Positions 7,676 through 62,656 of a stretch of DNA of 64,000 nt are shown here, one piece after another (positions within the stretch are counted from its first letter, which is position 1; each line of letters begins with the position of its first letter). The notes below the pieces were generated by a model. It ran no database searches. It was given only the letters and a program-made list of their open reading frames with translations, and had not been told where the DNA came from. The DNA is from an uncultured Acidobacteriota bacterium (GTDB lineage: Bacteria; Acidobacteriota; Blastocatellia; RBC074). The position numbers and the translations under genes are program-made. The stretch covers positions 7,325,352 through 7,389,351 of the forward strand of contig OY969418.1 of NCBI GenBank assembly GCA_963699175.1, in the 5' to 3' direction.

Positions 7676-7999
7676 TTACGCCGCACGTTTTGTGCCAATC
7701 ATCAATTGCATGCCGAGCGCATCCAGCAATGCCGCTACGTTCGCCAGCTTGGGATTAGCGCGGGCGGACAAAGCGCGTACAAGGCTCTGCCGGTCTAATT
7801 GTGTTTTCGCCGCCAAGTCATCCAAACCGTAAGCCTCGGCCACGTCGCGCAGCGCCAGCACGAAAGCGGCTTGATCGCCTTCCGCCAACACCGCGTTCAA
7901 ATAGCCAGCGGCTTCTTGCGGGTTGCGCAGCGAGGCTAGCAGGTAATCGCGATAGCTCACCGTCAAACTGTTCCGCTTGTCTTTCTTTTTACTCATCAC
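7676..7999 (-). CDS. addiction-module antidote protein (HigA-like antitoxin)
   Basis: 107 aa. Family-typical LNAVLAEGD...LALRDVAEAYG. Overlaps the upstream toxin gene by 11 nt. Confidence 0.75.
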   Translation of the reverse strand: MMSKKKDKRNSLTVSYRDYLLASLRNPQEAAGYLNAVLAEGDQAAFVLALRDVAEAYGLDDLAAKTQLDRQSLVRALSARANPKLANVAALLDALGMQLMIGTKRAA

Positions 8000-8339
8000 G
8001 CATCACCTTCTTTTGCTTTTGATATTCCTGCCAGTAAGACTTGGCGCGTTTGATGTCCGCTGCTTGCGTGCGTTTATCGCCGCCGCAGAGCAGCACTATG
8101 ATGCGCACGCCATCCTGCCCAAAGTAAACGCGATAGCCGGGGCCATAGTCAATCCGCAACTCCGACACGCCCTCACCAACCGCTTTGGCATCGCCCGGAT
8201 TGCCTGCGCGCACACGCGCCAAGCGCGCGTTAATGCGAAAGCGGGCCTCAGCATCTCTGAGCGCCTTCAACCACACCATGAAAGGAGCCGTGCCGTCTGG
8301 TTTGACGTAAGCCTCAATCTGTTTGATTTCAATCATCGT
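7989..8339 (-). CDS. addiction-module killer protein (RelE/HigB-like toxin)
   Basis: Start taken at the internal Met (MIEIKQIEAYV...), by codon arithmetic from the ORF track. C-terminal YRVYFGQDGVRIIVLLCGGDKRTQ is typical of the toxin family. Toxin-first order is as in HigBA. Confidence 0.75.
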   Translation of the reverse strand, partial: TMIEIKQIEAYVKPDGTAPFMVWLKALRDAEARFRINARLARVRAGNPGDAKAVGEGVSELRIDYGPGYRVYFGQDGVRIIVLLCGGDKRTQAADIKRAKSYWQEYQKQKKVMRDE

Positions 8340-8376
8340 GGCCTCTGGTTTCCAGGCAATGATAGAACGGCAAGTA

Positions 8377-10161
8377 CTAGGGAGTCTTTGCATCTAGCGC
8401 AACACGGAAACCAATATCGGAGTCACCTTTGTTGGATGGGAACCCAATACGAGTGGCGGAGCGGCAGTGGATAGATTTGGCACTCCACGCACCGCCACGC
8501 AGCACTATGTAGAGCACTAAGCTATTTGACTCTCCGCCGCTCGGCCAAGTTGAGCCATCGGTTGGCGCACCTTTATAGTTCTCATGCCAACCATCCTGGC
8601 ACCATTCCCACACATTGCCGTGCAGATCGTAAAGTCTGAAGCGATTCGGCAGTTTCTTTCCGACCGGATGCGTATTTTTTTCAGCGTTGTCAGCGAACCA
8701 AGCTATTGCATTAAGGTCGTCTGCATAATCGCCCGCACGGCAGGCATACTCCCATTCGGCCTCGCTGGGCAGACGATACGCCTTGCCGGTGTGCTGGCTG
8801 AGTCGCCTGCAAAACCTCGTGGCGTCCTCCCATGAGACCTGTTCGACCGGGCGATTGAGATCGCCTTTGAATTGGGACGGATTGTTGTCCATCACCGCTT
8901 GCCATAGCGCTTGCGTCACTTCGTGTTGGCCAATGTAAAAGTCAGAGAGAGTGACGGGGTGCTGGGGGTATTCGGCAATGTTGCCCTGTCCGTCGGGCGA
9001 ACCCATCTTGAACAAACCACCCGTCACACGGATCATTGTCAGATTGGCGCCATTGATCGGTTCGGTGAACTCCGGTCCGGTCGCGGGTCGCAGTTGCCCT
9101 TTTTCAGGCAACTCTCGTTCTTTAACCGGCTTTTGCCACAACCAATAGCCAATTCCCATCACCGCTTGTAACCCGACGAACACTAACGCCAGCAGCCACG
9201 ACCAGCGCGGTGCAGGACTGACGGCCTGTGCATTCATCGCAATCAGGCGCTTGTGGTACGGGGCAGCAGTATCAACAATGGGTGTGGATATTTCAGTCAT
9301 TGGTGTCAGGCAGAACGTCTGCGGCGAGGATTGCAGCTTGGTCACTGGCGGCGGCGCAATGTCAAGCTTAGGATACGTCAATGCAGCGCGTAACTCAGCA
9401 GCAGTGCGATAGCGCACCACTGCGTCCTTCTGCAACGATCTGGCGACGATCTCCTGCAACCATACAGGTACAGTGATTGGCAGAGGCTCCTGCTCTTCGT
9501 CGCGGATCGCGCCCATCAATTCGACCAGATCATGGCCTAAGAAGGGCAATTGTCCGCTCAGCAATTGGTACAATAGCACACCGACCGACCACAGATCAGT
9601 TTGTTCGTTCCGCTTACGCTGAAACGCTTCGGGAGCCATATAGACCGGTGTCCCAGCCATCACCACGCTATAACTATTAGATCTGAGCATCCGCGAAATG
9701 CCGAAATCGGCAATGCGTGGCGTCTCGCCCTGCAACAGGATGTTGGCCGGTTTCAGATCGCGGTGGATGATCTTGCGCGTGTGCAGGTATTCCAGCCCAG
9801 CCAGAATGCCGCGCGCCATCTCTACCGCGGCCTCGACCGAAGGCGCGCGTCCGCCGTGCCGTTTCAGCCACTCTTCCAGCGAACCATCGGGTGCGTACTC
9901 GCTGGCGATCACGACGTGCTCCCCGTACACACTGGCTTCAATAATCGGCAGCACGTTGGTGTGGCCGCTCGCGGCAATCCAGATGTCTGCTTCCTGCCGG
10001 ATGGCATCAAGGTCCAGGTCGTCGTCGAGCGGAATCTTTAGTGCGACCTCGCGGGCGGCCAGTGCCGTAATGTTCTGTGCCAACCAGACCTCGCCGAACG
10101 CGCCTTTGCCGAGTTTGCGGATGAGTTGATATGGGCCAATGCGGTCGTTGGCTTTAGGCAT
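8377..10161 (-). CDS. Ser/Thr protein kinase - TM - formylglycine-generating-enzyme (FGE/SUMF1) domain fusion
   Basis: N-terminal kinase: GKGAFGEV, HRDLKPANIL, DFG. One hydrophobic TM segment (WSWLLALVFVGLQAVMGIGYWLW). C-terminal FGE-sulfatase domain: YRLPSEAEWEYACRAG, NVWEWCQDGW, LRGGAWS. Confidence 0.85.
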   Translation of the reverse strand: MPKANDRIGPYQLIRKLGKGAFGEVWLAQNITALAAREVALKIPLDDDLDLDAIRQEADIWIAASGHTNVLPIIEASVYGEHVVIASEYAPDGSLEEWLKRHGGRAPSVEAAVEMARGILAGLEYLHTRKIIHRDLKPANILLQGETPRIADFGISRMLRSNSYSVVMAGTPVYMAPEAFQRKRNEQTDLWSVGVLLYQLLSGQLPFLGHDLVELMGAIRDEEQEPLPITVPVWLQEIVARSLQKDAVVRYRTAAELRAALTYPKLDIAPPPVTKLQSSPQTFCLTPMTEISTPIVDTAAPYHKRLIAMNAQAVSPAPRWSWLLALVFVGLQAVMGIGYWLWQKPVKERELPEKGQLRPATGPEFTEPINGANLTMIRVTGGLFKMGSPDGQGNIAEYPQHPVTLSDFYIGQHEVTQALWQAVMDNNPSQFKGDLNRPVEQVSWEDATRFCRRLSQHTGKAYRLPSEAEWEYACRAGDYADDLNAIAWFADNAEKNTHPVGKKLPNRFRLYDLHGNVWEWCQDGWHENYKGAPTDGSTWPSGGESNSLVLYIVLRGGAWSAKSIHCRSATRIGFPSNKGDSDIGFRVALDAKTP

Positions 10162-37950: not shown

Positions 37951-39416
37951 GTGGGAGCACGCATGATGTCACCAGGCTACAAATGGAAACCCATCGAAGA
38001 TTTGCCGGAGGATTGGCCAAAACTCGCTTCTAGCGAATTGGCCGGTCTGTTTGCTGTCTGGAAAGAGCAAGCCGTGCAGTTGAAAGACTCGCCTGCCTAT
38101 CGAGAATTTCAGGTGCGCTTGCGTCGTGAATGGGCCATTGAAACTGGCATTATCGAAGGGCTGTACGACATTGATCGCGGGGTCACGCGCACTTTGATCG
38201 AGCGCGGATTGCACGCTAGCCTCATTGCGCACGGCGACGCCAACAAACCGGCGGAAGAGATCATTCCCATGCTCAAAGATCACGAAATGGTGGTCGAAGG
38301 GCTGTTTGATTTCGTTGGCCAGCAACGCCAGCTCTCGACCTCATACATCAAGCAAGTTCACCAAGCTCTAACCACCCATCAGGAGACTGCCAAAGGTATA
38401 GACAGTTTGGGACAGCCCACGCAAATTCCGTTGCTTCGTGGCGATTGGAAAAAGTGGCCTAACAACCCGACACGGCCTGATGGCAAAGTCCACGAGTTTT
38501 GCCCACCTGAACAAGTTGCATCCGAGATGGATCGTCTGATTGAAACGCATCAGCAGCATTTGCAAGCAGGCGTTCCGCCAGAAGTGGAGGCCGCATGGCT
38601 CCATCATCGCTTTACGCAAATTCACCCGTTTCAAGATGGGAATGGACGTGTGGCGCGGGCGCTGGCGTCGCTGATCTTTATTCGTGCTGAGTGGTTTCCT
38701 TTTGTTGTTCACCGTGACGACCGTGCTGATTATATTGATTGCTTGGAAAAAGCGGACGCCAGGGACATGACCTCATTAGTGAAGCTAGTGGGCCAAAGCC
38801 AAAGGAAAGCATTCAATCAGGCTATCAAGCTATCAGATAACGTGTTGTTGCCTGCTGATTCTGTTGAGCAAATTATTTTTGCTGGTGGGCGTTATTTGAA
38901 AGAGAAAGTGGAGAATCAACGGCTACTCGCTGAAGAACTCAAAAGGCTCCACGCTCAATATAAACATGTTGCTGAAACTCTTCAGGCGACTACCAATGAA
39001 CGGTTTGATAAACTTGTCGGCGATTTTGACAACCTCTTGCGTGAGTCTGGCAGCCAGCAGACGATTCGTATAGAAAAATATGGTTATGGATTTGGGCCAA
39101 TGTCCAAAGCGACTTTTGACCATGCAAATGCCAGCATCACAAAGCAATTAGGTTGTGATGCTGATATATGGTCGGATGGCTGGGGCTGTTCCATCCGTAT
39201 AGGAGATAGCATTGGAATGCACTTCGGCTTTTATCGGTTGCTCAACTCAGATTGGCGGATTGCCTGTGGGTTAGCTTACCTGAGAGCAACTAATCCTGAG
39301 CAGTTTTTCCCACTGTGCAGTGAAGCATTTCAATGCTCAACTAGCGAGGATTTGACAACCGTCGTCCCTCGCTTCAAGCAATGGCTTGAGGATGCGCTGA
39401 TCCTCGGCTTTGACTA

Positions 39417-39435
<19 letters not shown>
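37951..39435 (+). CDS. Fic/DOC-family protein (class II-like, with N-terminal inhibitory motif) plus about 250-aa C-terminal domain of unknown function
   Basis: Fic motif [14 protein letters not shown]. Inhibitory (S/T)xxxE(G/N) motif as TGIIEG near residue 70. Markedly AT-richer than flanks. Inserted between ruvA and ruvB. Confidence 0.85.
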
Positions 39436-53719: not shown

Positions 53720-53859
53720 GCGTGGGAATGGCCTCGGCAGGGTGGATTTGAAGACTGCTGCGATTGCAAGTTGAAGATTGGTCTTTATAATTTGCAGCCG
53801 GTTGGTTGTGTACATTCACCCATTGATTGCACCATATTGATTGCCGAGGAAGCGACTTC

Positions 53860-55461
53860 ATGCCATCTCCCAACGCGAAAGTGCCGAAAGTTTTTATCAG
53901 CTATAGCCACGATTCGCACGTGCAGCTTGACCGCGTGCTGGCGCTGGCCGACCGGCTGCGCGCAGAAGGGATTGATTGCAACCTTGATCAATATGAATCC
54001 ACGCAGCCGCAACGCTGGCCAAGTTGGATGAACGAACAGTTCCGTGCCGCTGATTTCATCCTGGTTGTCTGTACTGAGATTTATTGCCGTCGCTTCGAGG
54101 GGCGTGAAGAGTCGGGCAAAGGCATGGGCGCGAAATGGGAAGGCGCAATCATTACCAGCGAATTGTACCGGGATGAAACGCTCAATCGGCGCTTCATCCC
54201 AATTATCTTTGCTGCCGAAGATGCCGCACAAGTGCCGGAACAATTGCGGGATTACACGCGCTATCTGGTGACGGACGAGCAGGGCTACGAAGCGCTTTAC
54301 CGACGCCTGACCAAGCAGCCGCGCGTGGTCAAACCGCCGCTCGGACAGGTGCAGACATTCGAGCCGGTCAATAAGCTGAACGCCTTGCCCGACGAGAACC
54401 GGCAACAGGAGTTTCCAGTGATTGAAGCGGAAGTCGCTCACCCATCTTCACATCAGAGTGTCGCCACACTCACTCCATCGCTAGTTACTGAACCTGTTAG
54501 AGCGCCAGTCAAAGAACCGGAGACGCCCTGGCAAGAACAACACGACAAGGTTGAAGTGAAGAACCCAACCCGTCAGCTAGCGCCACTAAGCAGCCGGCGC
54601 AGAAGACTGATCTTAGCAAGCGGCGTATTGGTGATGGGGTTGGCAATCGCAGTAGCTTCCAGCCTGTTGTACAAAAGCAATTCGGTTGTGACTGACAATC
54701 GCAGCCCGACGCCGACAGTTGCCTCACCCAGCCCAGTGGCCAAAGCGACTTTGCGATCATTCACTGCTGATCTCGGCAACGGCGTGAAGCTGGAGATAGT
54801 CGCGTTGCCAGGCGGCACGTTTGAGATGGGGTCGGACAATGGCACGATTGATGAGAAGCCGAAACACAAAGTGACGCTCTCACCCTTTGCCATCGGCAAA
54901 TACGAAGTGACGCAGGCGCAGTGGCAAGCCGTGATGGGCAACAATCCGAGCTACTTCAAAGGCGATAACTTGCCGGTGGAAAGAGTTTCGTGGCTCAATG
55001 TCCAAAAGTTTATTGAGAGGCTCAAGCTCAAGACCGGCAACCAGACTTATTGCTTGCCGACCGAAGCCGAGTGGGAGTACGCGGCGCGCGCCGGTTCGAC
55101 CGGCAAGTACAGCTTCGGCGACGATGCAGCCAAGCTCGGCGAGTATGCTTGGTTTAGGGGAAACTCCGGCGCCAAGACGCATCCCGTTGGGCTAAAGAAG
55201 CCAAACGATTGGGGCTTATATGATATGCAGGGCAATGTATCGGAGTGGTGCCAGGATTGGTACAGCAAGGATTACTACGAGCAAAGTGTGAACAGCACTA
55301 ATCCGCGAGGGCCATCATCAGGCGAGTATCGCGTCCTGCGTGGCGGCCCGTGGTTCATCAACATTGATGATGCGCGCCCCGTCTACCGCGGCTTCTACAA
55401 TCCCGGCGACCGCGACATCAGTGTGGGTTTTCGGGTGGTGGTGGCGCGTTCTCCTTCCTGA
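53860..55461 (+). CDS. TIR-domain - TM - FGE/SUMF1-domain protein (receptor-like architecture)
   Basis: Start ATG 53860 with SD GAGGAAG. N-terminal KVFISYSHDS...FILVVCTE (TIR_2-like). One TM (LILASGVLVMGLAIAVASSLLY). C-terminal FGE domain (YCLPTEAEWEYAARAG, NVSEWCQDWY, LRGGPW). Confidence 0.8.
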   Translation: MPSPNAKVPKVFISYSHDSHVQLDRVLALADRLRAEGIDCNLDQYESTQPQRWPSWMNEQFRAADFILVVCTEIYCRRFEGREESGKGMGAKWEGAIITSELYRDETLNRRFIPIIFAAEDAAQVPEQLRDYTRYLVTDEQGYEALYRRLTKQPRVVKPPLGQVQTFEPVNKLNALPDENRQQEFPVIEAEVAHPSSHQSVATLTPSLVTEPVRAPVKEPETPWQEQHDKVEVKNPTRQLAPLSSRRRRLILASGVLVMGLAIAVASSLLYKSNSVVTDNRSPTPTVASPSPVAKATLRSFTADLGNGVKLEIVALPGGTFEMGSDNGTIDEKPKHKVTLSPFAIGKYEVTQAQWQAVMGNNPSYFKGDNLPVERVSWLNVQKFIERLKLKTGNQTYCLPTEAEWEYAARAGSTGKYSFGDDAAKLGEYAWFRGNSGAKTHPVGLKKPNDWGLYDMQGNVSEWCQDWYSKDYYEQSVNSTNPRGPSSGEYRVLRGGPWFINIDDARPVYRGFYNPGDRDISVGFRVVVARSPS

Positions 55462-55665: not shown

Positions 55666-55947
55666 ATGGCGACTATCCAGAAAATCCGGCAGAAAATTAT
55701 TGATCGGGCTTACTACCTCTCCTCGCATGCTGAAGAGGAAATGGCAGCGGATGGATTCGAGCGTGCTGATGTGGAACAGGCGATTTGTAAAGGACGGATC
55801 GAAAAGAGACTGACGCAGGATGAGCGTGGCACGCGCTACCGTATCGAAGGGCCAGCCAAAGATGGTAGGATGATGCAGGCCCTTTGCCGCTTCGGGGCGG
55901 ACAGCGATCTGGTGATCATTACGGTTTACGCTTTAACGGAGAAATGA
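55666..55947 (+). CDS. DUF4258-family protein (toxin-like)
   Basis: 93 aa. Family-like AYYLSSHAEEEMAADGF...ADVEQAI. Stop overlaps the next start (ATGA). Confidence 0.6.
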   Translation: MATIQKIRQKIIDRAYYLSSHAEEEMAADGFERADVEQAICKGRIEKRLTQDERGTRYRIEGPAKDGRMMQALCRFGADSDLVIITVYALTEK

Positions 55948-56171
55948 TGATTTGCGAATTCTGCGGTGGGCAGACTGCTTTACGAAAAGTCAGGAAACAA
56001 CATTGGCTCGGCGGTAAACTCTACCTCGTGGAGAATGTCGAAGCTGCGGTCTGCACTGAGTGCGGCGAGCGTTACTTTCACGCGACGGTGTTGGATCAGA
56101 TAGACGAGATGTTGAAGGCCGAGCATCTGGTTAAAGAGCATCTTTCGGTCGAAGTGGTGAGCTTTGCGTGA
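55944..56171 (+). CDS. YgiT-type zinc-finger protein (MqsA N-domain-like antitoxin)
   Basis: MMICEFCGG...AAVCTECGERYF (CxxC...CxxC). Confidence 0.65.
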   Translation: MMICEFCGGQTALRKVRKQHWLGGKLYLVENVEAAVCTECGERYFHATVLDQIDEMLKAEHLVKEHLSVEVVSFA

Positions 56172-56422
56172 TTATGCCTGAGGATTTCTGCGAATACTGC
56201 GATGCCACGTTGCCCGCCGGGGAAAAACTGGTAACGGTCTACCGCCACCGGCAGGGACAACACTTTATCTTCGAGCGAGTGCCAGCGCAGGTCTGTCCGC
56301 GTTGTGGCGAGCGTTATTATTCGGCAGCCGTAGTGCACGAAATGGATCGCTTGATGCAACAGCCTAGCTCATTAGCCAACCTTGTTTCAGTTCCAGTTAT
56401 TGCCTTGAAACCCGCTGTGTGA
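56168..56422 (+). CDS. second YgiT-type zinc-finger protein
   Basis: CEYCDA...CPRCGERYY. 4-nt overlap with the preceding gene. Confidence 0.65.
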   Translation: MIMPEDFCEYCDATLPAGEKLVTVYRHRQGQHFIFERVPAQVCPRCGERYYSAAVVHEMDRLMQQPSSLANLVSVPVIALKPAV

Positions 56423-56429
56423 AGGTTCT

Positions 56430-57176
56430 ATGAAGAAGCTACCTGTTTTGACGCTAATGCTGCTGTTGCTAGCTTGCCTGCAAGCGCAAGACAAGGTGGC
56501 AGGGCAATCAGCCAGCAAACCCGCCGACAAGCCGATCTACGAAACGCGCGCCAACCACGACCCCGAAGGCACGGGCAAGTTTTACCTGGGCCGCGAGATC
56601 GCGCACGTGATGGGCTACGCGGGCGCAAGCTGGCTGGAACGGCCAGGACGCGTCGAAGAAGAACAGCCCGACAAGGTCGTCGCCGAAATGAAGCTCAAGC
56701 CGACCGATGTAGTAGCTGATGTGGGCGCAGGCACGGGCTACTTTTCATTTCGCATCAGCCGCGTCGTCACACAGGGCAAGGTCTACGCGGTGGACATTCA
56801 GCCCGAAATGCTGAATGTCATTGAGCAGCGCAAACAGAAGCTGAAGGCCGAAAATGTCGTGGGCGTGCGCAGCACTGAAAAAGAAGTAAAGCTACCGGAC
56901 AATTCGGTAGACGTGGTGTTGATGGTAGATGTCTATCACGAGTTCGAGTTCCCCTACGAAATGATGCAGAGCATCAAGCGCGCGTTGAAGCCCGGCGGGC
57001 GCATCGTCCAGATCGAATATCGCGGCGAAGACCCGGACGTGCAGATCAAACGCACGCACAAGATGACTGTCGCTCAGGCGCGCAAGGAGATGGAGTTTGT
57101 TGGACTGGCCTGGAAAGAGACGAAAAGCTTCTTGCCGCAACAGCATTTCCTAGTCTTCGAGAAACCTGCCAAGTAG
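56430..57176 (+). CDS. secreted class I SAM-dependent methyltransferase
   Basis: Signal peptide. Motif I VADVGAGTGYFS. Confidence 0.8.
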   Translation: MKKLPVLTLMLLLLACLQAQDKVAGQSASKPADKPIYETRANHDPEGTGKFYLGREIAHVMGYAGASWLERPGRVEEEQPDKVVAEMKLKPTDVVADVGAGTGYFSFRISRVVTQGKVYAVDIQPEMLNVIEQRKQKLKAENVVGVRSTEKEVKLPDNSVDVVLMVDVYHEFEFPYEMMQSIKRALKPGGRIVQIEYRGEDPDVQIKRTHKMTVAQARKEMEFVGLAWKETKSFLPQQHFLVFEKPAK

Positions 57177-58480
57177 TGCAACTGAATCCCACCCAATCTG
57201 AATCTGCTTTGAGCTACGGCGAATTCGCGCGGCAGCTTTATGCTACGGGCATTCTCTCTGACCCGTGGCTCAATGGCCGCGAGCGGTTTCGCTTGTCCGC
57301 CGTGGTGCTCGCGCCGCAGCAATTGCAGGCACTTTACGTTGCAGCCGAACGTGTCGCGCATATCTATCACGAATTGGCCGAGATTGTTTTGGCTCGGCCT
57401 GAATTGCTGGATGAGTTCTTCGAGCTGACACCTTTTCAAAAGGCAATGTGGCTAGCCAGCGAAGGCCGCTGGCACGGCATCGCGCGTGTTGATCTGTTTG
57501 TTTGCACGGATGGCCGCGTCCGCGCGTGCGAGTTGAATTCCGACACGCCGTCGGGCGAAGCTGAAACCGTGCTGCTCAATCAACTGCTGCACCCTTATTA
57601 TCCGAACACCGCAGACCCGAACACAGCGTTTGCCGAACGCTTCTGGCAAATGCTGCAAGTTTCGCAACAAGCCACTGTCTCCCGCTCTCTTGCTCTCCCG
57701 CTCTCCCACTCACTGCAACGCGCAGCAATCATCTATCCCACGGATATGCCGGAAGATTTAAGCATGATCGCGCTCTATCGGCACTGGCTTGAAGCGCGCG
57801 GTTGCGAGGTCGTGCTCGGTTCTCCGTATAACCTGGGCTTGGATGAGCAGCGGCGCGTGACCGTGTTGGGCAAGCCGGTCGAACTCATCATTCGTCATTA
57901 CAAGACCGATTGGTGGGGCGAGCGCGAATTGATCTGGGAAAATCAGACGCCTTATCCCGATCCTGATCCGTTGGAGCGCGAGTTATTGCTGTTGCTTGAA
58001 GCAGAGAACGAAGGGCGCGTGACGGTGGTCAATCCTTTTGGCGCAGTGGTGACGCAGAACAAGCTGGCGATGGCGTTGATGTGGGAGCGGCAGGAATTGT
58101 TTTCAGCGCAAGCGCGTGAATGGATCATTGAACACATCCCAGAGACGCGCCGCCTGGCGGTGTTGGACGCAGAGCAATTGCCGCGCGAGGAGTGGGTGTT
58201 GAAATCGGATTATGGGTGCGAAGGCGATTCGGTGGTGATTGGCGTGTTTACTAAACTGAGTGATTGGCGTTTGGTCTTGGCCACGACGATTAAGGAGCAT
58301 TGGGTAGCGCAACGCTTCTTTGAAGTCGCACCAGTTGTCGAAGCTGAAAACAAACTGTTGCCGAATTACGGGGTCTATTTGCTAGGCGGGCGCGCAGCCG
58401 GATTATTCACGCGCTTGTCTCAACAGGCGACCGATTACACTTCAGTGACCGCGCCGACGTTTGTTGTGGCGGCTGACTAG
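57176..58480 (+). CDS. glutathionylspermidine-synthase-like ATP-grasp family protein
   Basis: GTG start overlapping the methyltransferase stop. ARVDL...ELNSDTPSG pattern of the GSP_synth pre-ATP-grasp family. Tentative. Confidence 0.55.
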   Translation: MQLNPTQSESALSYGEFARQLYATGILSDPWLNGRERFRLSAVVLAPQQLQALYVAAERVAHIYHELAEIVLARPELLDEFFELTPFQKAMWLASEGRWHGIARVDLFVCTDGRVRACELNSDTPSGEAETVLLNQLLHPYYPNTADPNTAFAERFWQMLQVSQQATVSRSLALPLSHSLQRAAIIYPTDMPEDLSMIALYRHWLEARGCEVVLGSPYNLGLDEQRRVTVLGKPVELIIRHYKTDWWGERELIWENQTPYPDPDPLERELLLLLEAENEGRVTVVNPFGAVVTQNKLAMALMWERQELFSAQAREWIIEHIPETRRLAVLDAEQLPREEWVLKSDYGCEGDSVVIGVFTKLSDWRLVLATTIKEHWVAQRFFEVAPVVEAENKLLPNYGVYLLGGRAAGLFTRLSQQATDYTSVTAPTFVVAAD

Positions 58481-58666
58481 CCTATTTTGACTTAGGGCGC
58501 GCGCCGGTTAAGATAGTGGCCATCTCATCGGTAGAGAAAACTTTACACCACAGTCCCGATGGTCGCCCACTTGGGTCGGGCGCAAAAGTTTAATCGTACC
58601 CCCGATTGATGCCTTAAATTCCCGCATGGCTTCATCATTTTCCGATCATCTTTGGAGTTAAGCAGT

Positions 58667-61600
58667 ATGCAATGGCGAGCGATTTCTAGCAGTGTGTTCT
58701 TGGTCTGTGTGTTGGTGGCCGCGCAATGGATGTGGTTGTCAGGCACTAGCTCTGTGGCTGCTAATCCGCGTGAATTAAAGCTGGTTAGCAAGTACCAAAC
58801 GATCACTGGCACGCTGGAAGGCAACGTTATAGATGCCGCCGGGATAGGCATCCCACAGGCGACGGTAACGGTTACCAACGAAGAGACCGGCAATCCACGC
58901 AGCATGCGGACAAATGACGAAGGTCATTACTCGTTCAGGCTTTTGCCGATGGGCATCTATAAAGTTGAGGCCTCCAAAGAAGGCTTTGTGGCGAGGGCGG
59001 ACGCTAGCAATCTGATTAAGGTCAAGCTCAACGCGGTTGCGTTGAAAGCGCCTCCGATTACTTTGGTACCAGCAGCGGCCACGCCCGCGCCGTTACCAAC
59101 GCCACCGCCTGTGGCTGCTCAGAGTGATGAAGTCACGACGGGGCAACTTGCTAATCAATTCGACGCGACGCGCCGGTCGAATACTGACGAGAGCCAACTG
59201 CTTGGCTTGCCGTTGGCCGATAGCCGCACTTTTGACGTGCTAGCCACGCTGGCCGCAGGCGTAGCACCGCCGCCGCAAGTCAAAGGTGTCGCTGGCCCAG
59301 GCATCGGCGCTGGCATCGGCACGGCAGGACAATTTGCAGTGAACGGTCAGCGCGCGCGCTCCAATAACTTCACTGTAGACGGTTCAGACAACAACGATGA
59401 AGACGTGGGTGTGCGCCGCCAGGGCTTCGCCGCGCTGGTGCCGCAGAGCGTTGAGAGCGTCAAAGAGATTCAGATCGTCACGCACCTGTGGGATGCCGAA
59501 GCCGGGCGCAGCAGCGGCTCGCAGGTCAACGCCGTCTCACGCTCGGGCGCGAACCAGGTGCACGGGACGCTTTACGATTTCTTCAATCACGACGCGCTCA
59601 ACGCGCGCAACTTCTTCGATTACATGTCGGACAAGGCACAGAGCTATGCTTTGACAGCGACAGCGATCAGCCGGTTCCAGAATGGCCAACCAGCCAGCAC
59701 GCGCCTGCTACCTGTTGTAGTGCGCAGCGCAGGGCAAGTTGTTCAGCCCAACCCCTCATTGGACAAAGATCAGTTTCAGCGCAATCAAGGCGGCGGAGTG
59801 ATTGGCTTCCCGTTGCGCAAAGACAAGACTTTCTTCTTCGGTTCTTTTGAACGGCAGGACGTGAAGGCGCGCCAGGAGCAGCATTTCTCTGTGCCGACGG
59901 TGGCGCAGCGCGGGTTCCTGAACTTCGGCGCATCGGGTTATAACATTAGCGGGCAAGACCCGCGCGATTGTTGCTTTCCAACTTCGATTGTAGGCGATGC
60001 GGTCTTCTCGCTCTTTCCTTTCCCGAACAATCCGATTGGGCCGTATGGCGCAAACACTTATACGCAAGTGCTGCCTGCCGATGGTTCGGCCACTATCTTT
60101 TCGGGCAAGGTGGATCACAGCTTCAAGACCTGGGGCCACGATCACATAGTAACGGCGCGTTACAACTTCACGAATGATGAACGCATTGTGCCCTCGGTTG
60201 GTGGCGCGCTTTTTTCAAGCCTGATTCCGCGCGTGGGCACACAGAATCTTTCGCTCTTCCTCAACTCGCAGCTTTCCGACAAGCTGGCGAATCAACTGCG
60301 CGCCAGCTACGGACGCACGCGGTTGCGGTTTGATGAGAAACGGGACGCCTATCTGTCGCCCTCAACCTTCACGCCGAAGGAACCGTTTCTGCTCAATGCC
60401 GGCTTATTGACCAATCAAAGCACACCACCGACTCAACCCGGGCAGCCACCGTTGGCTTATGTGGACTATATTCGTAGCAGCCGCACGGCTGACGAACAAT
60501 TGGGTACGATTGGCCAATTGATTGTTGCGCCCTACAGCCCGTTGGGGCTGGACGTTTACCTCTTCCCCCAAGGGCGTGCTAACAACACCATTCAAACGGC
60601 TGATGCCTTGACGCAATTCAGCGGCGATCACACATTCAAATACGGCTTCGACGTGCGCCGCACGCAGCTCAACAGCTTTCTCAATCGCAACTATCGCCCG
60701 CAAGTCGTCTTTGGCGGCACGCCGGATTTGACCAACTCGCCTTTCGTGCAGGAGTTCGCTTCGCGGATACCGTTTAAGAACCCTAGCCAATTTGGCCCGA
60801 CGCCCGGCTTTTTCAGCGGCACCGATCTGGCCGCGCTCGGCATCCCGACCAGCATCTCGCAAGCCTTGGCGCTCAACACGCCTGATTCAACGATTGGCTT
60901 GCGGTTTTGGCAACTGAACTTTTTCTTCAACGATAACTGGCGCGTGCGGCGCGGACTGACGCTTGACTACGGGTTGCGGTACGAACTCAACACCGTGCCC
61001 AAAGAAGTCAATCAGCGCATCGAAAAAACCTTCGCGCTCGACCAACTGCCCGCGAATGATACGAGCCTGCGCATCGCTGCGCCCTTCACCAATGCGCGAA
61101 CGATCTATGATTCCCAGCGCCTGCTCGGCTCGCTCAACGCTACGCTGGATGCCTACCGCCGCATCCTGGGCGGGCGCGAAAGCATCTACGAGACCGACCG
61201 CAACAACTTTGGCCCGCATTTCAGCCTGGCCTGGGACCCGCTGGCTGGCAGCAAAACGCAGGCGGGCAAAACCGCTGTGCGCGCAGGCTTCGGCGTCTAC
61301 TACGATCTGAATTTGGGTAGCGTCGTGAGCCAGTCGCGCAACGTCTTCCCCACATTCATCCCGTTCAACGTTGACGCGAACACTTTCTTTTACGCCCGCG
61401 ATGCCTTCTCTGTATTCGGCCAGCCGTACGGCATCTTCAATCCGCGCTTTGTACCCGTGGATGTAGTCAGCGGCAATCGTTTCACGCACTACGGCTTGAT
61501 TGCGCCACAACAGTTGAATGCGATTCAGCTTCCGAGCGGTGTATTGCAACAGTTGTTAGGGTTGCTGTTCGATCCGAGCATCGGTGGCGGCCGTCCTTCG

Positions 61601-62656
61601 GGTGGCGGGCTGGCTTTTACCTTGCCTGACCGAAATCTGCGCACGCCCTACACGCTGCAATACAACCTGCAAATCGAGCGCGAGTTGTCCAAAGACTTGC
61701 TCGCCAACCTGGCTTACGTCGGCAGCAGAGGCGTCAAGCTGACGCGCTTTCGCACGCCGAATGGCGGCCCAAATTCGATTCCGATTCCGATTGATCCGTT
61801 AGGCTTGATCTTCGATGAAGCCGTTCCCACGATTCCGGCAATTGCCTTGCCGCCGCTCGGCAATCCGAGTTCGTCGCGCCCGACACGTCCCATTGCCGAA
61901 CTCGGCGCGTTCACGATCTTTGATTCGTCGGCAGCCTCGAACTATCATTCCTTGCAAGCGAGTGTGACCAAACGTTATTCAAGAGGCTATCAGTTCACCG
62001 CCGCCTACACGCTGTCGCACGCGATTGATGATGTGTCGGACGTTTTCGATCTGGCAGGCGCGTTCGTGTTGCCGCAAGCCGACCGTGACTTGCGCGCGGA
62101 ACGTGCCGACGCCAACTTCGACGTGCGCCACCGCTTTGTGTGGAGTGCGGTGTCCAATGTGCCGCTGCTGAATCGTTTCAACAACAAGAAAGGCGCGACG
62201 GGTTTACTGCTGGGCAATTGGCAATTCGCCGCGCTCTCGACTTATCAAACCGGGCAGCCCTTCACAGTCAACACGAGTTATGACATCAACCTGGATGGCA
62301 ACTTGACTGATCGCCTTGACAGCTTGAACGGTTTGCAGATTCTCGACGAGCGACAGCGGCGCTTGGCACTGACAGGCACGGCCGCGAGTTTGCTCGCGCC
62401 GCTCGGAAGAAACGGCAGCGTCGGGCGCAACACCTTTCGCGCGGCAGGCGTGGCCAAGACCGATTTGGCCGTCTTCAAAAATTTCAGGTTCCGCAACGAA
62501 CAATCGCTGCTGTTCCGCGTCGAAGTTTTCAATCTCTGGAATCGCACGCACTTTGCGATTCCCGTGCGCGTGCTGGAAGCGCCTAGCTTCGGTAGCTCCA
62601 CAGACACGCTGTTCAATCCACGGCAAATACAGTTTGCGTTGAAGTATGTGTTTTAA
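58667..62656 (+). CDS. TonB-dependent receptor-like outer-membrane protein with N-terminal CarboxypepD_reg domain
   Basis: ATG 58667 with GGAG SD. Signal peptide. CarboxypepD_reg (TLEGNVIDAAG...ATVTVTNEETG...GHYSF). About 1330 aa. C-terminal ...ALKYVF ends in Phe. Confidence 0.8.
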   Translation: MQWRAISSSVFLVCVLVAAQWMWLSGTSSVAANPRELKLVSKYQTITGTLEGNVIDAAGIGIPQATVTVTNEETGNPRSMRTNDEGHYSFRLLPMGIYKVEASKEGFVARADASNLIKVKLNAVALKAPPITLVPAAATPAPLPTPPPVAAQSDEVTTGQLANQFDATRRSNTDESQLLGLPLADSRTFDVLATLAAGVAPPPQVKGVAGPGIGAGIGTAGQFAVNGQRARSNNFTVDGSDNNDEDVGVRRQGFAALVPQSVESVKEIQIVTHLWDAEAGRSSGSQVNAVSRSGANQVHGTLYDFFNHDALNARNFFDYMSDKAQSYALTATAISRFQNGQPASTRLLPVVVRSAGQVVQPNPSLDKDQFQRNQGGGVIGFPLRKDKTFFFGSFERQDVKARQEQHFSVPTVAQRGFLNFGASGYNISGQDPRDCCFPTSIVGDAVFSLFPFPNNPIGPYGANTYTQVLPADGSATIFSGKVDHSFKTWGHDHIVTARYNFTNDERIVPSVGGALFSSLIPRVGTQNLSLFLNSQLSDKLANQLRASYGRTRLRFDEKRDAYLSPSTFTPKEPFLLNAGLLTNQSTPPTQPGQPPLAYVDYIRSSRTADEQLGTIGQLIVAPYSPLGLDVYLFPQGRANNTIQTADALTQFSGDHTFKYGFDVRRTQLNSFLNRNYRPQVVFGGTPDLTNSPFVQEFASRIPFKNPSQFGPTPGFFSGTDLAALGIPTSISQALALNTPDSTIGLRFWQLNFFFNDNWRVRRGLTLDYGLRYELNTVPKEVNQRIEKTFALDQLPANDTSLRIAAPFTNARTIYDSQRLLGSLNATLDAYRRILGGRESIYETDRNNFGPHFSLAWDPLAGSKTQAGKTAVRAGFGVYYDLNLGSVVSQSRNVFPTFIPFNVDANTFFYARDAFSVFGQPYGIFNPRFVPVDVVSGNRFTHYGLIAPQQLNAIQLPSGVLQQLLGLLFDPSIGGGRPSGGGLAFTLPDRNLRTPYTLQYNLQIERELSKDLLANLAYVGSRGVKLTRFRTPNGGPNSIPIPIDPLGLIFDEAVPTIPAIALPPLGNPSSSRPTRPIAELGAFTIFDSSAASNYHSLQASVTKRYSRGYQFTAAYTLSHAIDDVSDVFDLAGAFVLPQADRDLRAERADANFDVRHRFVWSAVSNVPLLNRFNNKKGATGLLLGNWQFAALSTYQTGQPFTVNTSYDINLDGNLTDRLDSLNGLQILDERQRRLALTGTAASLLAPLGRNGSVGRNTFRAAGVAKTDLAVFKNFRFRNEQSLLFRVEVFNLWNRTHFAIPVRVLEAPSFGSSTDTLFNPRQIQFALKYVF

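Follow-up and report, generated by a model that had tools for sequence, protein, structure and literature searches.

The gene and its domains

The window analysed here is a 64 kb stretch (64,000 nucleotides) of contig OY969418.1 from an uncultured Acidobacteriota bacterium. At 53860-55461 on the plus strand the open reading frame (ORF) list places a real ORF of 533 residues, with ATG at 53860 and a stop codon ending at 55461, at the coordinates that an earlier note on this DNA had given. An identical protein is present in a public collection. The product joins a SEFIR head to a C-terminal domain with the fold of the formylglycine-generating enzyme (FGE), with a linker, one transmembrane (TM) helix and a stalk between them. 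By its sequence it is predicted to be a membrane-spanning branch of a SEFIR-FGE family that occurs in Blastocatellia-like Acidobacteria and is otherwise mostly soluble. The features of the gene are as follows.

53764..53791, plus strand: weak sigma-70-like promoter match, TTGCAA-16-TATAAT (1 site against 1.6 expected in shuffles)
53846..53852, plus strand: Shine-Dalgarno-like GAGGAAG, 8 nt 5' of the ATG at 53860 (read directly from the sequence)
53860..55461, plus strand: whole gene, SEFIR - linker - TM - stalk - FGE/C-type lectin (CLec), 533 aa (ORF list; Pfam, PADLOC and NCBIfam scans)
53881..54387, plus strand: cytoplasmic SEFIR (STIR-superfamily) domain, residues 8-176 (Pfam, PADLOC, PDB sequence matches, Foldseek)
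54139-54141, plus strand: E94, candidate catalytic Glu (Glu in 148/150 relatives)
54160-54162, plus strand: E101, Glu at the TIR position (Glu in 82/150 relatives)
54388..54594, plus strand: disordered Pro/Glu/Gln-rich cytoplasmic linker, residues 177-245 (predicted local distance difference test score, pLDDT, below 50; composition; most length-variable region of the family)
54595..54672, plus strand: RRRR (residues 246-249) and single TM helix (residues 250-271) (hydropathy; net positive charge on the N-side)
54673..54759, plus strand: Ser/Pro/Thr-rich extracytoplasmic stalk, residues 272-300 (composition; low pLDDT)
54760..55446, plus strand: FGE-sulfatase-fold (C-type-lectin-like) domain, residues 301-529, predicted extracytoplasmic (Pfam, PDB search, Foldseek)
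55348..55425, plus strand: hypervariable patch, residues 497-522, corresponding to the variable region of targets of diversity-generating retroelements (DGRs) (column entropy; identity; gap-free alignment to the repeat pair of locus L005, below)

Conservation in dozens of Acidobacteria and Blastocatellia assemblies places the protein far beyond a chance ORF. The ATG at 53860 is favoured over an upstream in-frame TTG at 53827, a possible alternative start that was judged unlikely, because of the placement of the GAGGAAG and because homologues begin, in the alignment, about 8 residues ahead of the KVFISYSHDS strand. The promoter match only suggests that the gene has a promoter of its own.

In Pfam the head matches both SEFIR (PF08357, residues 9-140, E 3.9e-15, 56.9 bits) and TIR_2 (PF13676, residues 11-146, E 3.2e-13, 50.7 bits) above the curated cut-offs. 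The PADLOC bSEFIR model matches residues 8-176 with E 4.1e-51 (173 bits), in an alignment that spans model positions 38-212 of 412 and thus the SEFIR part only. The head is called SEFIR because the SEFIR score exceeds that of TIR_2 and because the bSEFIR match reaches 4e-51; on these profiles it belongs with the bSEFIR type of SEFIR domain and not with generic TIR domains. The TIR-like head of the earlier note therefore stands as regards the TIR_2 match and is narrowed as regards a generic TIR, since SEFIR and bSEFIR score higher. Matches in the PDB agree, with the Bacillus cereus SEFIR domain 5y8e (5e-11) and the Act1 SEFIR domain (9e-7) found by sequence, and with 5y8e and 5y8f, then 9ot1, then the TIR domain of SARM1 ranked by Foldseek from the AlphaFold model. 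A search of the PDB with a SEFIR-family profile returned SEFIR chains only and no TIR chains.

Conservation within the head was counted over 150 cluster representatives of its SEFIR subfamily. The protein retains the signature S14, Y15, H17, D18, D43, W53, W56, C71, T72, Y75, R78, W93-E94-G95, Y103 and P114. E94, inside the W-E-G motif, is Glu in about 99% of the representatives (148/150); the same position holds Glu in the B. cereus SEFIR structure, but Act1, an adaptor and no enzyme, has Ile there. E101 could be set against the Glu of the TIR 'HEI' motif by hhalign in a weak alignment of 27 columns to one TIR sequence (E 0.061). Residue 22 (53923-53925) is Gln here and in the relatives P0009 and P0010, and His in 141/150 SEFIR relatives.

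The C-terminal domain matches FGE-sulfatase (PF03781) over residues 312-527 with E 2.3e-49, above the curated cut-off. Its best sequence match in the PDB is TvpA (2y3c, 7e-41), with true FGEs at about 1e-22, and Foldseek likewise finds TvpA (7.7e-20) together with PvdO, the human FGE paralogue pFGE (1y4j) and EgtB. TvpA has the FGE fold without FGE activity (PMC5758913). In place of the Cu-binding Cys-pair motif of FGE, GGSxLCHxSYCxRYR, the protein reads GGPWFINIDDARPVYRGF; the 6s07 and 5nxl alignments end ahead of this motif, and the domain holds just two Cys, both away from it. NCBIfam models for PvdO, EgtB, SenA and GldK give partial matches far under their cut-offs (102.8 against 500 bits for PvdO), which reflect the shared fold only. 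An FGE enzymatic function was rejected on the missing Cys pair and the sub-threshold NCBIfam scores, and the protein is not counted as an FGE, because it lacks the catalytic Cys pair though it has the FGE-sulfatase fold. A binding module, not an enzyme, is the reading that suits the domain best; the earlier expectation of a non-catalytic module agrees with the loss of the Cys pair to GGPWFINIDDARPVYRGF and with a binding protein, TvpA, as the nearest structure.

The sole TM-like segment of the protein is LILASGVLVMGLAIAVASSLLY (residues 250-271), 22 uncharged hydrophobic residues with a Kyte-Doolittle 19-residue mean of 2.25. The protein has no signal peptide. The RRRR on the N-side of the helix, the missing signal peptide and the N-terminal region of 245 residues predict a type II single-pass protein, N-in/C-out, a topology derived from hydropathy and the positive-inside charge rule only. 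The domain order, single helix and orientation that had been proposed are borne out by the Pfam matches, the hydropathy and the RRRR flank.

Soluble relatives and a variable binding face

The SEFIR-FGE set comprises about 57 proteins, namely the query, 49 relatives from a first search and 7 from a second that used residues 1-300. Dozens of proteins combine the two domains, and those with names come from Blastocatellia or Acidobacteria. A TM-like segment lies in the linker of just three, the query, P0012 and P0033, and matching insertions with positive N-flanks are seen only in the latter two. In the other 54 the hydropathy peaks reach at most 1.58 and fall inside domain strands, and there is no signal peptide; lacking both helix and signal peptide, these relatives would hold their FGE domain inside the cell, and the ligand that it detects is presumably cytoplasmic too. 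The Toll-like topology is thus confined to a rare insertion variant and is no trait of the family, and 'sensor outside, TIR inside' fails as a description of how the family is built. The FGE domains of the three TM variants have 2, 4 and 1 Cys against 4-9 in most soluble members, a lower count that is weakly consistent with export. Related FGE domains occur in secreted, membrane-anchored and soluble proteins across 79 heterogeneous genome loci.

Linker length ranges across the family from 29 to 185 residues. The linker of P0058 carries a zinc-ribbon-like CPECG...CGECG, those of P0081 and P0090 have unassigned inserts of about 150 aa, and P0089, P0103 and P0114 also carry unassigned inserts (range about 100-150 aa). 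From these sequences the linker is a favoured site of module insertion, the TM helix being one of the inserts. Similarity to relatives is uneven along the protein: the SEFIR domain is nearest to those of P0010 (79%) and P0009 (78%) and the FGE core to that of P0033 (76.5%); in its SEFIR domain P0033 reaches only 48% identity to the query. This mosaic suggests domain-wise recombination or very unequal rates.

Among the 150 SEFIR representatives TM-like segments are present in 37, and in 31 the first of them lies just past the SEFIR domain (about residues 180-260). A Pfam scan of 98 of these representatives gave as fusion partners NB-ARC/NACHT with TPR, PNP_UDP_1, CHAT, CarboxypepD_reg and FGE, a set characteristic of immune or conflict receptors in bacteria.

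The window itself encodes a second receptor of this layout, which the earlier note did not mention.

8377-10161, minus strand: Ser/Thr kinase - TM - FGE-sulfatase paralogue, 594 aa (50% identity to the SEFIR gene in the FGE domain)

Its FGE domain follows the TM helix of a kinase whose Hanks-type head must be cytoplasmic, which argues, at this identity, that this type of FGE domain works outside the membrane. The same identity suggests that one sensor type is reused in the genome with different cytoplasmic heads.

The FGE domain varies most at residues 497-522. Column entropy in this patch is 1.9-2.7 bits, the highest of the folded parts, against 0.3-1.2 bits elsewhere in the domain (32 relatives), and mean identity to the relatives is 29% in the patch, 65% in the FGE core and 59% in the SEFIR domain. 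Neither the patch nor a link to DGRs had been noted before. That link comes from L005, the locus of the soluble orthologue P0009, whose SEFIR domain is the 78% identical one named above. A 122-bp copy of the variable stretch lies there about 500 bp downstream of the P0009 stop codon.

L005:5794-5915 and L005:6413-6534: DGR-type variable repeat (VR) and template repeat (TR) pair at the P0009 locus (14/15 mismatches at template adenines)

Within a 104-bp core, 14 of the 15 VR/TR mismatches lie where the downstream copy has an adenine, a rate of 14/24 A sites against 1/78 other sites (p = 4e-10), and the downstream copy translates to the Asn-rich RGGSWGNNNENCRSAYRNYNSPGHANINNGFRVV. On this pattern the two repeats are a textbook DGR template/variable pair, and the sensor of at least one soluble member is, as the mismatches indicate, diversified by a DGR. 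The patch of the query aligns to the pair without gaps. The SEFIR-FGE family has, on this evidence, a DGR-type binding face, and diversification of the query gene itself goes beyond the evidence. No reverse transcriptase (RT) motif (regular expression) and no RT-family Pfam match was found on the 15.8 kb L005 contig, and eight other family loci gave no template repeat. The L005 locus also has a DDE_5 transposase inserted between upstream XisH and XisI genes.

The genomic surroundings

The genes around the receptor, with two more distant features of the window, are listed here.

7676-8393, minus strand: Gp49-like (HigB-type, borderline score) gene and HI1420-type antidote gene, adjoining the kinase-TM-FGE gene
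37951-39435, plus strand: Fic/DOC-domain protein, 494 aa, just 5' of ruvB and queA
55666-55947: DUF4258 (Pfam/NCBIfam)
55941-56171: YgiT-type zinc-finger gene 1, without the MqsA helix-turn-helix half (Pfam/NCBIfam)
56168-56422: YgiT-type zinc-finger gene 2, without the MqsA helix-turn-helix half (Pfam/NCBIfam)
56430-57176: S-adenosylmethionine methyltransferase with N-terminal signal-like sequence (Pfam)
57176-58480: GSP_synth-like ATP-grasp protein (Pfam)
58652-62656: CarboxypepD_reg/beta-barrel outer-membrane protein (Pfam)

The toxin-antitoxin (TA)-like module of DUF4258 and YgiT genes is present next to the receptor gene as had been described; a role as its partner falls away, since orthologous loci differ at this slot. 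There the slot holds AF2212-like and PemK genes, Asp_protease_2, PIN, UPF0175 with BrnT, or nothing. The candidate partnership was rejected on this lack of conservation and on the absence of a PADLOC match for the DUF4258/YgiT genes. DUF4258 with two overlapping YgiT genes makes an unusual arrangement of one toxin and two antitoxin-like genes. Both FGE receptors of the window abut small TA-like modules of different families, Gp49/HI1420 in one case and DUF4258/YgiT in the other.

Downstream, the methyltransferase and GSP_synth genes overlap by one base (57176). The methyltransferase, GSP_synth and outer-membrane barrel genes all lie downstream of the receptor gene in L003 and L005 also, where the methyltransferase/GSP_synth pair is interleaved with small Asp_protease_2 or PIN genes, and the barrel alone of the three recurs in L001, L006 and L090. 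Upstream, most orthologous loci have SpoIIE-TsaD and then one to four tandem XisH/XisI pairs, which directly precede the SEFIR-FGE gene in L001, L005, L006, L087 and L090; no such pair is present in the window or in L003. The immediate upstream genes in the window encode a PMT_2-like glycosyltransferase and a reprolysin-like protease, and those farther upstream Fic, RuvB, QueA, GNAT, amidase, radical SAM and subtilase proteins. A tblastn search with the SEFIR domain found no second SEFIR protein in the window, a Pfam scan of about 20 window ORFs gave no other TIR or SEFIR match, and no partner gene was conserved across the orthologous loci compared.

Readings of the receptor

We propose a receptor of the inner membrane: the SEFIR domain, within the N-terminal 176 residues, would stay in the cytoplasm while the FGE/C-lectin domain would be exported to the periplasm or cell surface, where it would bind ligand through its hypervariable C-terminal face. 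A multivalent ligand outside would cluster the receptor, clustering would join the cytoplasmic SEFIR domains and the assembled domains would hydrolyse NAD+, as in bSEFIR and the TIR NADases, with growth arrest or abortive infection as the outcome. That the protein is such a ligand-clustered, membrane-anchored SEFIR NADase receptor is the reading we favour, at a little less than an even chance. The sequences show the domain architecture with its TM helix, the lost FGE catalytic residues, the conserved SEFIR signature, the hypervariability across the family and how seldom the helix occurs; that the protein cleaves NAD+, is switched on by clustering and serves immunity, and what sort of ligand it binds, we infer. 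A narrower version appears doubtful: a minimal one-protein surface receptor, a bacterial match in layout for Toll/IL-17 receptors, whose antibody-like C-lectin domain, moulded by DGR mutagenesis earlier in the history of the family, would sense a phage or its tail in the periplasm, or a competitor toxin or glycan, and signal to a SEFIR NADase before foreign DNA enters the cell.

The nearest precedent is bSEFIR of Bacillus sp. NIO-1130, a single-gene anti-phage system (Millman et al. 2022), which is reported to deplete NAD+ through its N-terminal SEFIR domain. Millman et al. selected N-terminal SEFIR domains that score above TIR, and the head studied here does so (56.9 against 50.7 bits in Pfam). 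Both proteins carry an N-terminal SEFIR domain and unite an effector head with a presumed C-terminal sensor in one polypeptide. They differ in that the C-terminal half of the query is unrelated, comprising linker, TM helix and FGE/CLec domain, and in that the query lies in no defence island; for these two reasons it is not taken to be a full bSEFIR member.

Several observations weigh against the NADase receptor. (i) TIR NADases carry their catalytic Glu in helix C within a W-x-x-x-E motif, as in SARM1 and plant TIRs. E94 sits at W+1 and not at the W+4 of TIR domains, and E101, with the strand D proline P114 at E+13, the spacing of the catalytic Glu in SARM1, is only 55% conserved (82/150); both therefore stay catalytic candidates only. 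The earlier note had named the TIR catalytic Glu as a point to check: a conserved Glu, E94, is present, as a candidate counterpart of that residue. (ii) The AlphaFold model has an overall pLDDT of 67.8 (60-96 in the domains) and does not model the TM helix. (iii) Most orthologues carry a cytoplasmic FGE domain, so that a target for a periplasmic copy to sense is not obvious. (iv) Searches with blastn (3' end of the gene and whole gene) found no template repeat in the window, matching only the kinase-FGE paralogue; the RT motif G...SQ...[YF]xDD was absent, by regular expression, from the window as well as from L001-L008; and the mismatches of the patch to the L005 template show no significant adenine bias (12/24 A sites against 22/78 others, p = 0.08). 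A DGR within the window was rejected on these three results. (v) The neighbours are housekeeping or envelope genes with only small TA-like genes adjacent, so the locus is no defence island. (vi) The gene is syntenic across genomes, as in vertical inheritance of a resident function.

The last two points lead to a different reading, in which the protein would be a resident envelope sensor: its lectin-like part would watch for a periplasmic molecule of the cell itself or of the environment (for example cell wall, exopolysaccharide or glycan), and SEFIR would adjust NAD+ levels or produce an NAD-derived signal for dormancy or physiology. The conserved order SpoIIE-TsaD-(XisH/XisI)-[gene]-...-methyltransferase-GSP_synth-outer membrane barrel, the housekeeping neighbourhood in the window and a kinase-TM-FGE paralogue in the same genome, an ordinary signalling layout, all speak for it. 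However, hypervariability confined to the binding face, with a DGR template in one orthologue, is a hallmark of an arms race, the SEFIR subfamily is elsewhere fused to immune-type modules, bSEFIR is an experimentally shown phage defence and the locus repeatedly takes up TA-like inserts of different kinds. We rate both the envelope sensor and its proposed output as rather unlikely. Somewhat less probable again is an adaptor-type SEFIR domain with no enzymatic activity, which would act by SEFIR-SEFIR or SEFIR-TIR assembly, as in IL-17R/Act1, on an effector encoded elsewhere. SEFIR was originally defined as a protein-protein interaction domain, the sole mutant in the bSEFIR preprint (D40A) was aimed at a predicted SEFIR-SEFIR interface, and neither the PDB profile search nor hhalign mapped a catalytic residue onto the TIR NADases. 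Against an adaptor, tblastn found no other SEFIR in the window and the roughly 20 Pfam-scanned ORFs no TIR or SEFIR, orthologous loci share no conserved partner gene, in later papers NAD+ cleavage by a one-protein system is ascribed to its SEFIR domain, and the 99% conservation of E94 in the bacterial family is lost in Act1.

Two further readings concern single parts of the protein. The hydrophobic segment could serve for peripheral anchoring or, as a helix, for oligomerisation in a cytoplasmic protein that acts like the soluble SEFIR-FGE proteins. This would accord with the 54 soluble relatives, with a topology drawn from hydropathy and charge only and with the low AlphaFold confidence for the segment; it is very unlikely in view of the 22 uncharged hydrophobic residues (mean 2.25) between an RRRR and a Pro/Ser/Thr stalk, the equivalent insertion in three proteins and the same layout in the kinase-TM-FGE paralogue. 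An enzymatic C-terminal domain, one of the FGE/EgtB/PvdO superfamily with a periplasmic substrate and with SEFIR in a regulatory role, we regard as scarcely credible. The database name of the relatives, 'SUMF1/EgtB/PvdO family nonheme iron enzyme', and the partial NCBIfam matches to PvdO, EgtB and SenA point that way, but those matches lie far below their cut-offs and reflect the common fold, the Cu-binding Cys pair is absent, the best match, TvpA, is non-enzymatic (PMC5758913) and the would-be binding-site face is the most variable part of the domain.

If the NADase receptor reading holds, its sensor has parallels in two groups of proteins. Like TvpA of Treponema denticola and other FGE-type C-lectin DGR proteins, the query has the FGE fold without catalytic residues and a variable patch near the C-terminus at the same positions, and thus the C-terminal variable region on a CLec/FGE scaffold that characterises DGR targets; TvpA differs in being a lipoprotein without a signalling head. 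The query is not regarded as a full DGR target because its window holds neither template repeat nor RT motif. Wu 2018, Kaur 2020 and Dore 2024 propose a role in antigen sensing for FGE/CLec (FGS) domains that follow a TIR, CHAT, kinase or STAND module; cytoplasmic placements are proposed in such work, and Dore 2024 also predicts periplasmic ones. The shared trait is an effector or signalling domain always N-terminal to FGE. Most of the proteins described differ from the query in having an NTPase/vWA module or in belonging to multi-gene systems, mostly of cyanobacteria and other multicellular bacteria. The minimal acidobacterial SEFIR-TM-FGE protein was not found in the searchable literature, nor were 'SEFIR' and 'formylglycine' found there together.

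The earlier note had compared the protein with Toll-like receptors (TLRs). The layout of an outside sensor and an inside STIR-superfamily domain in a single-pass protein, based here on hydropathy, is indeed that of TLRs and IL-17R, and the SEFIR fold matches 9ot1_E/9ot1_S (Act1 and a second chain) of the IL-17RA/RB/Act1 assembly. The orientation and any homology of the ectodomain do not hold: the query is predicted type II with an N-terminal SEFIR domain, and its ectodomain is C-lectin/FGE and not leucine-rich repeat or fibronectin type III. Animal SEFIR domains are adaptors, whereas bacterial SEFIR is reported as an NADase. With polarity reversed and ectodomain unrelated, the resemblance is an analogy, a convergent layout.

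The TIR and SEFIR defences known from bacteria detect infection from inside the cell. If the NADase receptor reading is right, the protein would be a very simple model of outside-in immune signalling in bacteria. At 533 aa in one gene it is small enough for direct biochemistry, and its rarity as a TM variant of a soluble family, with the DGR link, makes it a tractable case of such signalling through SEFIR/TIR domains. Orthologues with and without the TM helix would provide a natural experiment, since they put one sensor type on different sides of the membrane. The family also joins SEFIR/TIR NAD+ depletion, FGE-type C-lectin scaffolds and DGR hypermutation, which are usually separate themes. 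As an ordinary envelope sensor the protein would still bring a new output domain to the widespread X-TM-FGE receptor layout. The Ser/Thr kinase-TM-FGE receptor at 8377-10161 has that layout too, identical past the head, which is a Hanks-type kinase in place of SEFIR.

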